Positions 20,959-23,900 of a DNA stretch of 41,928 bases are shown here, in pieces. The notes under the pieces were generated by a model. The model was not told where the DNA came from. It saw nothing but the letters and a program-made list of their open reading frames with translations, and searched no databases. The translations under genes were made by a program, and so were the position numbers. Source of the DNA: a bacterium (GTDB lineage: Bacteria; SAR324; NAC60-12); contig CBDDTI010000224.1 of assembly GCA_965233585.1 (NCBI GenBank), forward strand, positions 1-41,928. Reading direction: 5' to 3'. Numbering within the stretch: position 1 is the first letter of the stretch; the number at the start of each line of letters is the position of its first letter.

Positions 20959-23900
20959 TTATTTACAAATATGGCATTTAGATAATTTGTTGTTGACAAT
21001 AAGACAATTTCCTAACGATAAAGTGTGATATCCACAATTTAAAATGTGTCGCTTGGAATCCATCGCTGATAATGCAATTTTTCTTTGAAAACAGGTCCGG
21101 ATCTTGTGATTCTTTGATCTTAAGTTTTTAAAAGATTTATAAATTACAACAGACTGTTTTAAACATTTTTTGTAATCGTCATAGGTCAATTGCTTTTTTA
21201 TGCTAGATTTCTTTAAACCTTTGCATATTTTCTTTTCTTCTGTTTTGTTTTTGTCCAAAAAATCAACAATTTTCATGGAATAGCATTTTGGGCGTAAGCC
21301 AATAAAATGAGTAATAGCTGCTCTGCCTTTTAGTTCATCTTTGAAATAAAAAAGCTGATTAGCTCTACTGCTATCGAAAAGAGGATGTTGTTTAGGGTAC
21401 TTTGAAAAATCAAACATGTGCTCTAATTTTTTCATTTCTTTTTCCAAGTTGTTGCATCTTACTTTTAAAAGAAAAGAATCTGTGTCTGAGAAACACAAAG
21501 ATACATTTTCTTTGCCAAAATGATGTTGAATTGTGTCATAATACGATCTGTACATAAACAACTTGGACAATTCCAAGATGGAAAAACCAACAGCTAAAGG
21601 TTTTTTTAACTCTATTGTTGCCGGTTTCTTGTTGACAGCCACCAAATTCTCATTGATGATTTGAAAACTGTTGATGTGTTGGCCAAGACTAGCTTTTCTC
21701 AAACTTTGTTCATCTCTGCAAAGAACCACTTCACAATAATTTCGAACATTTTCTGAAATGCAAAATAAAATTTTAATTAGAATATTGTTGTTAAAAATTA
21801 CACGTTCATGCAAACGAGCCAGCTAGCTAGCCACACCTTATCACATTTCATTTCCTTTCTGTAATAACTAATGTAAAATACAAAATTTACGATGTAAGAT
21901 CATTACGTTTTCTGAGCTCAGCATATTCAGTCATCAAAAATTTACGAACAATAACAACAATTTTAAAATGGATAAGAAAGGTCAGGAAAAGAAAATAAGT
22001 TCTATGACTTTTTGGAGGCGATCGAGCCAGACAAAAACAACTACAACTTCTGGCAGCAGCTTTGCTGGGACTGCAGCTAGAGGAGCATCAGGATGGTCCT
22101 CCCCCGGAGTTGTGGGTGGGGGAGCGTCAGGATCGTCTGGAGCGTGGGAATCTTCAGGAACCGCAAACAAGAGCACATGGGGATCTTCCGGAGCATCAGG
22201 ATCAACTGGAGCGTGGGGATCTTCAGGAACCGCAAACAGAAGCACATGGGGATCTTGGGGGAGCGTCAGGATCTTCCGGAGCGTGGGAATCTTCAGGAAC
22301 CGCAAACAGAAGCACATGGGGATCTTCCGGAACATCAGGATCTTCCGGAGCGTGGGGATCTTCAGGAACCGCAAACAGAAGCACATGGGGATCTTCCGGA
22401 GCATCAGGATCTTCTGGAGCGTGGGGATCTTCAGGAACCGCAAACAGAAGCACATGGGGATCTTCCGGAACATCAGGATCTTCCGGAGCGTGGGGATCTT
22501 CAGGAACCGCAAACAAAAGCACATGGGGATCTTCCGGAGCATCAGCATCTTCCGGAGCGTGGGGATCTTCAGGATTCGCAAACAGAAGCACATGGGGATC
22601 TTCCGGCGCATCAGGATCTTCCGGAGCGTGGGGATCTTCTGGAACCACAAACAGAGGAACATGGGGATCTGGAGCATGGGGATCTTCTGGCGCTGCGGGT
22701 GGTGGAGCATGGGGATCTTCTGAGACCAATCAGCGGTCCTCTCATGTCTACCCTACAATGACTTTTCACAGATCTGCGCCGGAGACGCAAAACTCTTTCA
22801 ACCAAAAAAATAAACAGACCTCTCGTTCCAAGCAGCCGTTTAATGAAATACCTAACTTCTACAAAAAAGCTTCACCGGTGCCAGAAGTGCGGCAAGTAAC
22901 GGCATTTCCGTCGTTGTGGTCCCCGTCCACAGCCCGTAAAGTGACCAAAAAAAATTAACAAATAAATTTGTTCCTTTAAAAAAACGACATAATAAAACCA
23001 ATATCACAAATTCTACAATTTAATATTCATTTAATTTATTGATATTTATGAGATAATTTGCCATTAATTGTGTTGAGATTTGGTGATTAATTTCTAATAA
23101 CTTCCCAACCAACCCCATGTGGGAAAATTCAAAACAAATTAAAGGAAGGAAGGTGGAGAAGGAGGAGAAAAAGGACGATGAAGAGGACGAGGACGAAAAT
23201 AATGGTTGGGGTGTTCAGGAGGGAGGAGCAGGACGGGGTGTTTTTGCTGGACAGGATGGAGGAGGAGCGGGACAGGATGGAGGAGGAGGAGGAAGCACCA
23301 GCATCGAACAACTTTGCAAAGATCCGGAGGCGGCGCCGCCGTCTTCCGATCCCGCCAGCTCCGCCACCGTCTCCGGATCCCCGAAAGACAAACCGGTCGA
23401 TGGCATCGGCGATGCTGCCGCCAACCGCGCCGCCAACGTTGCCGAGGAGGAGCCTCATCAGTCGATTTGCCGATGCGGTGGTCGGGCTGGTGAGGACGGT
23501 CACCACCGCTTTTAGCAGCGGTTCAGGCCACGTCCCCCCCAACAACACCGCATCTTCACAACCCAACCGTGCTCAAGACGAACATAAATACGATGCGGCC
23601 AAGTGCGTGGTGAGCTCCGTCCGGACCTACTGTCGGAACTGTCAAAGGTACCACCACGCACTTGTCCCCGATGTGTAAAAAAGAATAAAACGATCTCTAA
23701 ATAAAAAATGACCCCTTAATGATAGTACTTATTTTTTACGCGGATAAATCATCTTATTTTGGAAACTTACCAATAAACTTTCCAAAAGTAGAGTTGGCAA
23801 AAAGTTTAAAAAGCCTTAGTTCAAAGTCGTTGCGGGCATTCGATCGCAGCTTTGTGACCTTCTCGATGAATTCTTTTAAAAAAGCTTTTTGTCGAAACTT

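Follow-up and report, generated by a model that had tools for sequence, protein, structure and literature searches.

A tryptophan-array gene nested in the polymerase intron of a Maverick/Polinton-like element, and its candidate role as a ligand of Argonaute

The stretch of DNA analysed here (the window; 41,928 nucleotides (nt), contig CBDDTI010000224.1 of assembly GCA_965233585.1) carries a Maverick/Polinton (adintovirus-like) endogenous virus. In a 2-kb intron of this element's own protein-primed DNA polymerase (PolB), and antisense to it, lies a gene at 21968-22958(+) that encodes a regular array of tryptophan (Trp) residues; gene and product are hereafter called the W gene and the W protein. 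The W gene represents a real protein-coding gene family whose reading frame, including every Trp, is under purifying selection, and its product is predicted to be disordered. The single best mechanism that we can offer, and we do so tentatively, is that the W protein serves as a multivalent ligand of Trp-binding pockets, most likely those of Argonaute.

The W gene starts with an ATG at 21968 and ends with a TAA at 22956-22958, its Trp-rich reading running in frame 0 to about position 22252 and then in frame +1 from 22257 to the stop. The 5' part (21968-22255, +) comprises the start codon, a non-repeat N-terminal segment beginning MDKK... that is common to the intact paralogs described below, and the first two repeat units, and encodes six Trp, three WG and one GW; the 3' part (22256-22958, +; codons from 22257) adds six more units and a tail, ...PEVRQVTAFPSLWSPSTARKVTKKN, before the TAA, with 15 Trp and 13 WG. 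The two parts together contain 21 Trp, 17 of them next to Gly. A first-pass annotation, made from the sequence alone, had reported about 17 WG/GW dipeptides at a spacing of 11-12 amino acids (aa) in a G/S/A/T-rich context, and counting bears this out, with 16 WG, one GW, and Trp-Trp distances of 11 and 12 residues by turns. The composition of the 213-aa repeat region is S 31%, G 28%, A 13%, W 9%, T 9%, N 4% and R 3%, with L, I, M, Y and C nearly absent and D and E rare. The periodicity arises because the array (22117-22670, +, from Tandem Repeats Finder and self-BLAST) is built of a 69-nt (23-aa) tandem unit, of which Tandem Repeats Finder recognized 8.0 copies with 92% matches at 22121-22670; the 17 motifs are therefore copies of about two and not 17 independent events. 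A Pfam Collagen match on the 3' part (7.4e-5, 22.9 bits, below the cut-off of 27.2) was judged to be an effect of composition.

The change of frame, at 22255/22256, lies inside the array, and the window gene as assembled is a copy broken by a +1 frame shift. The break falls at the junction between the tandem copies of a 139-nt block (equal to two units and one further base; 139 = 2x69+1); self-BLAST aligned 22117-22558 with 22256-22693 at an offset of 139, and the units agree when they are printed in register. Public Logan contigs, which derive from four runs of one sample in one study (the sole sample holding the stretch, with no RNA run listed as a holder), leave the bin 22264-22310 uncovered; none spans the junction and no indel is listed at 22255, and the break at 22255/22256 may therefore be either a real mutation or an assembly error. 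The window also holds the paralogous W gene of a second copy of the element (41039-41928, +), which begins with an ATG at 41039, is built of an 11-aa AWGSS-type unit with 17 Trp and 14 WG, has in-frame TGA codons at 41381 and 41711, and runs off the end of the window.

A tblastn search of the window assembly (12.0 Mb in 747 contigs) with the non-repeat tail yielded 15 W loci: nine intact, four internally broken, including the window copy, and two cut by contig ends. Seven of the intact paralogs are 396 aa in length, one is 393 and one 389; all start MDKKDQEK and all but one end ..PEVRQVTAFPSVWSPSTARKVTKKN, that one ending ..KVTKKIKI, whereas family members overall range from 148 to 396 aa. Among the seven copies of exactly 396 aa (94.9-99.1% nt identity), the ratio of nonsynonymous to synonymous polymorphism (pN/pS) was 0.345 in the W frame versus 1.08 in the other two sense frames, which contain 5-17 stops, and variable sites fell at codon positions 1, 2 and 3 in the numbers 24, 20 and 44 (p=0.004). 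By region, pN/pS was 0.30 in the repeats, 0.43 in the non-repeat tail and 1.9 in the first 40 residues (small counts). The antisense frame that shares wobble positions with the W frame had a pN/pS of 0.349, but it is interrupted by 5-7 stops, none of them within the repeats, and lacks a Met. The strand and frame assigned in the first-pass annotation thus hold, and translation in the PEDPHA frame, which it had named as an outcome that would overturn its proposal, is contradicted by those same stops and the lack of a Met.

What selection retains within this family is Trp. All 27 Trp columns of the seven 396-aa copies were invariant, versus 330 of the 369 other columns, and within the repeats of intact copies Trp was never swapped for Phe or Tyr. 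Trp is also kept in three repeat architectures, namely the 23-aa unit of the window copy, the 11-aa unit of the second copy and the arrangement of the intact paralogs, where Trp are 9, 11, 14 or 18 residues apart, and its retention is therefore more than chance. In the intact paralogs each Trp stands in the context GG(A/S)W(S/P/K/A)S(S/T), e.g., GAWSS; the window subfamily and a metagenome protein, P0008, read AWGSS, and the second copy has WG at 14 of its 17 Trp. The overall context is (G)(A/S)W(G/S/P/K/A)S(S/T), with Trp making up 7-9% of residues, and repeat number and unit type change fast between subfamilies.

Disorder was predicted by AlphaFold2 from P0008, an intact member of 220 aa, together with the family alignment: the mean predicted local distance difference test score (pLDDT) was 49.5, the predicted template modelling score (pTM) was 0.12, and the model contained no secondary structure but one 3-residue helical turn. 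With the spacing seen in the paralogs, this prediction supports the earlier description of a Trp-periodic, disordered accessory protein encoded by the element. The protein is not slightly acidic; by counts of K+R versus D+E it is net basic, at 29 versus 8 in the window copy and 44 versus 21 in a 396-aa paralog. The window copy's tail (...PEVRQVTAFPSLWSPSTARKVTKKN) is invariant or near-invariant in nine aligned family members, whose last 30 residues hold most of their 22 invariant columns. This C-terminal tail, ..ARKVTKKN, is basic and the best conserved part of the protein, with 84-87% nt identity between subfamilies; further conserved pieces are a short N-terminal segment and a PAWPSRTPYKSVPQ motif. 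If the array is a pocket ligand, as proposed below, the conserved C-terminal peptide would supply a further function, e.g., localisation or an additional contact.

The intron that houses the W gene extends over 21753-23770(-), and was delimited by its splice sites (5' ATTG/GTAAGT, 3' TTTGCATTTCAG/AAAATG) and by the spliced join, in which ..NSTFGKFI is followed directly by ENVRNY.., matching the uninterrupted ..NSVYGKTMENVRKH.. of distant PolB copies on contigs C315 and C493. Contig C606 was dropped as an intronless reference because its own PolB is interrupted, and C315 and C493 were used instead. The PF03175 match of the exon upstream of the intron extends to the last residue of that exon, and the last PolB exon, at 20959-21752(-), contains ..FSDTDS.. 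as read in the sequence. A second nested open reading frame (ORF), at 23178-23678(+), shares the intron and is likewise antisense to PolB; it is of 166 aa, ends ..RTYCRNCQRYHHALVPDV / ..CRNCQRYHHALVPDV / ..CRNCQRYHHALV, and is homologous to the single nested gene of a sister subfamily.

When the 54 PolB loci in the assembly were sorted by the gap at the position of the W gene, 24 had no nested gene and a PolB either uninterrupted or with at most 54 nt of gap (PolB identity 33-66%), 12 had a gap of 930-1322 nt (identity 86-89%), 13 had a gap of 1557-2296 nt (identity 92-100%) and five had no partner exon on the contig. All 13 loci with the long intron hold both the W gene and a small YHHALV ORF, and the W gene was found only at these 13 of the 54. 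Of the 12 loci with a gap of about 1 kb, 11 carry a single different antisense gene, intact in six, which begins MMMMEMRRGY, contains EVPTESPIEMLIEAPT-type repeats and ends ..CTANTFCTKYWQYHH(T/A)LVQI. This makes the W gene a recent arrival, specific to its lineage, in an intron that had already been put to use, and the intron is thus a cradle or landing place for fast-evolving, repeat-rich accessory genes. The gene of the sister subfamily (e.g., on C328, C670, C30 and C77 of the window assembly, G000), where it is the sole nested gene, encodes 340-410 aa with a hydrophobic Ala/Val-rich stretch, and its EVPTESPIEMLIEAPT-type repeats are acidic and variable. A metagenome protein, P0100, fuses the N-terminal part of the W protein directly to a YHHALV-type ORF, the type of the second nested ORF, which suggests a deletion or alternative splicing between the two nested genes.

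Upstream of the W gene, about 160 nt (21810-21967, +) are conserved in an alignment of 13 copies and constitute a putative promoter and 5' untranslated region. The initiator (Inr)-like motif and the polyadenylation signal that had been credited to the gene are both present, but the former, TCAGT at 21927, is ACGGT, ACGGA or TAAGT in other copies and thus not conserved, and the AATAAA at 22961 is confined to window-type copies. It is a second AATAAA, at 22991-22996(+) and about 35 nt after the stop, that is conserved in all 15 aligned loci. The sequence CATCAAAAAT at 21932 is conserved among the aligned copies; as a shared promoter word it showed no enrichment across the window, with 20 matches versus 15.5 expected.

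In the mechanism that we favor, the Trp array would be a multivalent ligand whose Trp side chains would enter hydrophobic pockets for Trp on a host protein. The best precedent is the set of pockets in the PIWI domain of AGO-clade Argonautes, which GW182/TNRC6 and NRPE1 use, as do the viral mimics P38 and P1. The element would thereby titrate or mislocalise RISC (the complex of RNA-induced silencing), and small-RNA silencing of the element would be blunted. The antisense position within PolB bears on this, as transcription of the W gene would overlap the PolB pre-mRNA, which could seed double-stranded RNA. That the W protein is a Trp-pocket ligand of some host factor is possible, falling not far short of an even call; that Argonaute is the target is doubtful; and the full proposition, that an invertebrate Maverick/Polinton encodes a GW182-like decoy that fills the Trp pockets of Argonaute and disables small-RNA silencing directed at the element, is more doubtful again. 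The insect setting suggested in the first-pass annotation is only a lead.

Several properties of the array argue for an Argonaute ligand. AGO-binding sites are described, in passages of the source (PMC9262622; this and the other papers below are cited for parts of their text), as at least two Trp, at least ten residues apart, that face three pockets in the PIWI domain. This two-pocket spacing rule holds for the 11/12 spacing of the window copy and for the 9, 11, 14 and 18 spacing of the paralogs, and the predicted disordered region contains several Trp, 21 in the window copy and 27 in intact paralogs. Known partners carry their AGO-binding Trp in disordered stretches, with Gly as a common though not constant neighbour (bioRxiv 10.1101/2025.10.18.683247). 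WG/GW platforms show an excess of W, G, N, S, A and D and a shortage of L, I, M, Y and C, and between species only the context of the W is conserved (PMC2910046); the window array is rich in S, G, A, W, T and N but contains few D and E, and the W protein has a net basic charge. Viral silencing suppressors bind AGO through WG/GW (PMC2904775, PMC5393175). The array shares the predicted disorder and the spacing of Argonaute-binding platforms and may share most of their composition. That it uses Trp exclusively and invariantly, not Tyr or Phe, is more in keeping with an indole pocket than with generic aromatic stickiness.

Other observations weigh against an Argonaute ligand. Each of the nine intact paralogs of 389-396 aa has no WG at all and at most one GW among 26-27 Trp; Trp next to Gly is therefore not the family-wide rule, and the selected feature is Trp among small residues 9-18 aa apart, not the WG dipeptide. 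The platforms described tend towards D, E and N, and an acidic patch is required by one AGO1 partner (PMC2910046; bioRxiv 10.1101/2025.10.18.683247), whereas the W protein is basic; G/S-rich, low-complexity GW proteins, hornerin among them, are known to be picked up falsely when AGO hooks are predicted from composition (PMC2910046). Both W genes in the window are broken, the first by its frame shift and the second by its two in-frame stops. The usual transposon defence of animal germlines is the PIWI clade. Three fully conserved Trp pockets are described only for the metazoan AGO clade, the pockets being variable in the PIWI clade (PMC12477606). No PIWI-domain gene was found in the window assembly, which holds only part of the host genome and is thus uninformative about the host on this point. 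No homology to an Ago-hook protein was seen: three intact members had no Pfam family at E<=1, the W protein had no PDB chain at E<=1, and nothing in Pfam, the PDB or the protein libraries was similar to GW182 domains or to any Ago-hook protein. The Argonaute-hook reading is in sum partly supported and plausible as the leading hypothesis, with AGO binding putative.

The rival that survives best, unlikely as we hold it to be, is that the W protein is a sticker-and-spacer condensate scaffold, in which Trp stickers, G/S spacers and Lys/Arg would drive phase separation, alone or with nucleic acid, and so build a replication or assembly compartment for the element with no need of a specific Trp-pocket partner. 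The regular spacing of aromatic residues at 9-18 aa, the spacers rich in G/S/A/T, the positive net charge and the AlphaFold2 prediction of complete disorder would all be expected of such a scaffold, and GW182-AGO itself is said to condense. However, a scaffold of this kind does not account for repeats that use Trp alone, invariant at 27 of 27 columns, which points to a need for the indole, and it leaves the strongly conserved C-terminal peptide without a role.

That peptide would have a purpose if the W protein were a virion-associated or nuclear-entry protein, i.e., a disordered internal protein, cement or import adaptor, and we regard this as quite unlikely. The Trp repeats would then work in the manner of FG-nucleoporin repeats, by binding to transport receptors or by insertion into the barrier of the pore, and the basic C-terminal peptide would anchor the protein to the capsid, the genome or importins. 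The element does have a full morphogenesis module, the ..ARKVTKKN tail is basic as well as best conserved, and a spacing of about 11-12 aa with uncharged G/S/T/N/A spacers resembles that of cohesive FG domains. The W gene, however, is sited within PolB and thus in the replication module, at a distance from the capsid genes, and is absent from most related capsid-bearing elements of the same assembly; no conserved adenain-type cleavage motif was apparent by eye. Candidate adenain-type sites before the tail (LGGG/S in some repeats) were not conserved across subfamilies and were dropped.

More improbable still is a Trp-pocket ligand of a host factor other than Argonaute, e.g., CCR4-NOT or PAN3, by which mRNA decay, not RISC, would be redirected or blocked. 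The same sequence features that fit Argonaute fit these factors, and Trp motifs in the silencing domain of GW182 bind deadenylase subunits, but those motifs are few and not arrayed. Finally, the notion that the W gene yields no functional protein, either because its open frame is a side effect of GC-rich tandem repetition within an intron or because the true product comes from another frame or strand (e.g., PEDPHA or HGDL), is scarcely credible and already largely refuted: two other frames do stay open for 200-340 aa in the repeat, the wobble-sharing antisense frame mirrors the low pN/pS, and both window copies are broken, but only the W frame is open in nine copies from a conserved ATG, via the non-repeat N-terminus and tail, to a conserved stop, the competing frames are interrupted or evolve with a pN/pS of about 1.1, the non-repeat tail is itself constrained, and intronless PolB homologs leave no space for an inserted PolB exon.

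Mavericks and Polintons rank with the largest and the least understood of the mobile elements in animals, and we know of no mechanism by which they evade small-RNA defence. A full-text literature search on Polinton/Maverick with Argonaute gave, among the ten papers listed of 23, no occurrence of 'silencing suppressor'. A selected, element-specific protein that has an exposed Trp every 9-18 residues as the sole conserved feature of its repeats is a testable candidate for counter-defence, or else for a viral condensate scaffold. If the Argonaute-hook reading is true, the W protein would be the first case of an Argonaute-hook mimic from an animal DNA transposon or virus, as well as a new protein family. 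Fast-evolving accessory genes nested in a polymerase intron are an unusual genome architecture in themselves.

The element itself spans approximately 9572-32534 and is bounded by terminal inverted repeats (9572-10050 versus 32534-32130, inverted, 80% identity). The second element copy is 5'-truncated and extends from 32550 to the end of the window, being 89% and 83% identical to 13218-22742. A retrovirus-type integrase is encoded at 13431-14513(-), with rve (1.6e-9) and Chromo (2.4e-6) matches, and the morphogenesis module consists of a major capsid protein (MCP), a penton-like protein, an adenain-like protease (Peptidase_C5, 0.0052, below the curated cut-off) and an A32/FtsK-type ATPase (Pox_A32, 5.1e-4, below the curated cut-off). 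The nearest Atlas clusters of the 450-aa capsid protein carry a double jelly-roll (DJR)-like domain, score 0.98, in only 15-24% of cluster members; these clusters come mostly from arthropods and echinoderms, which is only a lead. The multi-exon, protein-primed PolB matched PF03175 on one exon (7.1e-5; 22.3 bits, below the 25.8 cut-off), and the motifs ..NSTFGK.. and ..FSDTDS.. were read in its sequence. The PolB gene as a whole (20959-26283, -) is split into five or more coding blocks, whose junctions are of the GT..AG type and whose gaps are short, and its N-terminal block contains an Endonuclease_7-like zinc motif (PF02945, 1.6e-5).

Between the integrase and capsid genes, a TFIIB-like protein (14929-15684, -; Zn_Ribbon_TF, 2.4e-8) and a TBP-domain protein (15758-16300, -; PF00352, 3e-18) adjoin each other, and both recur on 35 contigs of the assembly; no Polinton-borne TFIIB-like or TBP gene was described in the titles returned by a full-text search for Polinton with TATA-binding. 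Two small conserved ORFs of the element, at 14520-14921(-) and 19778-20152(-), recur on 35 and 39 contigs, respectively; the former is basic and Gly/Arg-rich with an amphipathic-looking N-terminus, the latter has a C-terminal hydrophobic segment, and the two may correspond to internal or membrane-active proteins of the adenovirus type. Near the right end of the element, a 157-aa ORF at 30735-31208(-), present on 11 contigs, has a hydrophobic N-terminus followed by Ser/Thr-rich, mucin-like repeats. A 756-aa ORF at 7347-9617(+), with a G+C content of 50-57%, adjoins the left inverted repeat and recurs on three contigs; it has no Pfam match, and its tail is Gly/Trp/Pro-rich and poly-Lys. Outside the element, the flanking host DNA contains a THAP-domain ORF at 4484-5113(-) (1.6e-6).

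The window is host DNA and not bacterial. Five large contigs of the assembly, 136 kb to 1.07 Mb in length, have a bacterium-like ORF density of 0.75-0.83, and most of the other 55 among the 60 largest have a much lower ORF cover. By tblastn, genes of the element recur across the assembly, with pieces of PolB on 36-46 contigs and the capsid protein on 37. The assembly mixes large bacterium-like contigs with eukaryote-like ones of similar G+C, which are short, rich in repeats and number in the hundreds.

Relatives of the W protein were few and without a name. A word-indexed protein search gave seven, and HMMER gave 15 matches at E<=0.001 among 1.84 billion representatives, all within the W family; their lengths are 80-282 aa, except for the window assembly's own P0002 at 425 aa, several of them are gene calls that hop between frames, and all with a listed source come from metagenome assemblies. 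The ESM Atlas provided no usable match, and a family-alignment scan of IMG/VR viral contigs, JGI metagenomes and GTDB genomes confirmed no relative. To the libraries searched, the W protein family is new.

Among known systems, aromatic sticker-spacer domains and FG nucleoporin repeats resemble the W protein in their evenly spaced aromatics, uncharged G/S/T/N/A spacers and predicted disorder; unlike these, the W protein uses exclusively Trp as its aromatic and has a conserved C-terminal peptide. As a lineage-restricted extra beside the core PolB, integrase, MCP, protease and ATPase, the W gene is like other adintovirus/Maverick accessory genes, but the adintovirus accessories described in passages of PMC8502044 are venom-like membrane-active proteins and 'oncoids', unlike the W protein. 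In the text of that paper, 'disordered', 'RNA interference' and 'Argonaute' have no occurrences, and the six passages brought up by the term search do not mention an antisense gene nested in a PolB intron, the single match to 'intron' being to group II intron maturases. SPMMV P1 and TCV P38 are likewise parasite-encoded proteins whose Trp motifs could occupy AGO pockets (PMC2904775, PMC5393175), and the W protein may do the same; they belong to plant RNA viruses, have two or three WG/GW and are otherwise folded, whereas the W protein is from an animal-type DNA element, has 17-27 Trp and is predicted to be fully disordered. The Argonaute-binding domain of GW182/TNRC6 (motif I, motif II and Ago hook) is also disordered and multivalent, with Trp pairs at least ten residues apart (PMC9262622), but the W protein has no silencing domain, PAM2 or RRM, its Trp array is far more regular, and it is basic. 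The WG/GW platforms of plant NRPE1 and SPT5-like (KTF1) are, like the W protein, tandem, fast-evolving arrays with many Trp in a disordered region, of which only the Trp and its small-residue, G/S-rich context are conserved between relatives (PMC2910046); there is no homology to them, and the W protein differs in being stand-alone, small, encoded by a mobile element and net basic, and in having WS, not WG, in most members. The W protein is not a member of a known family, and the architecture closest to it in working is that of the reiterated WG/GW platforms of NRPE1 and SPT5L.

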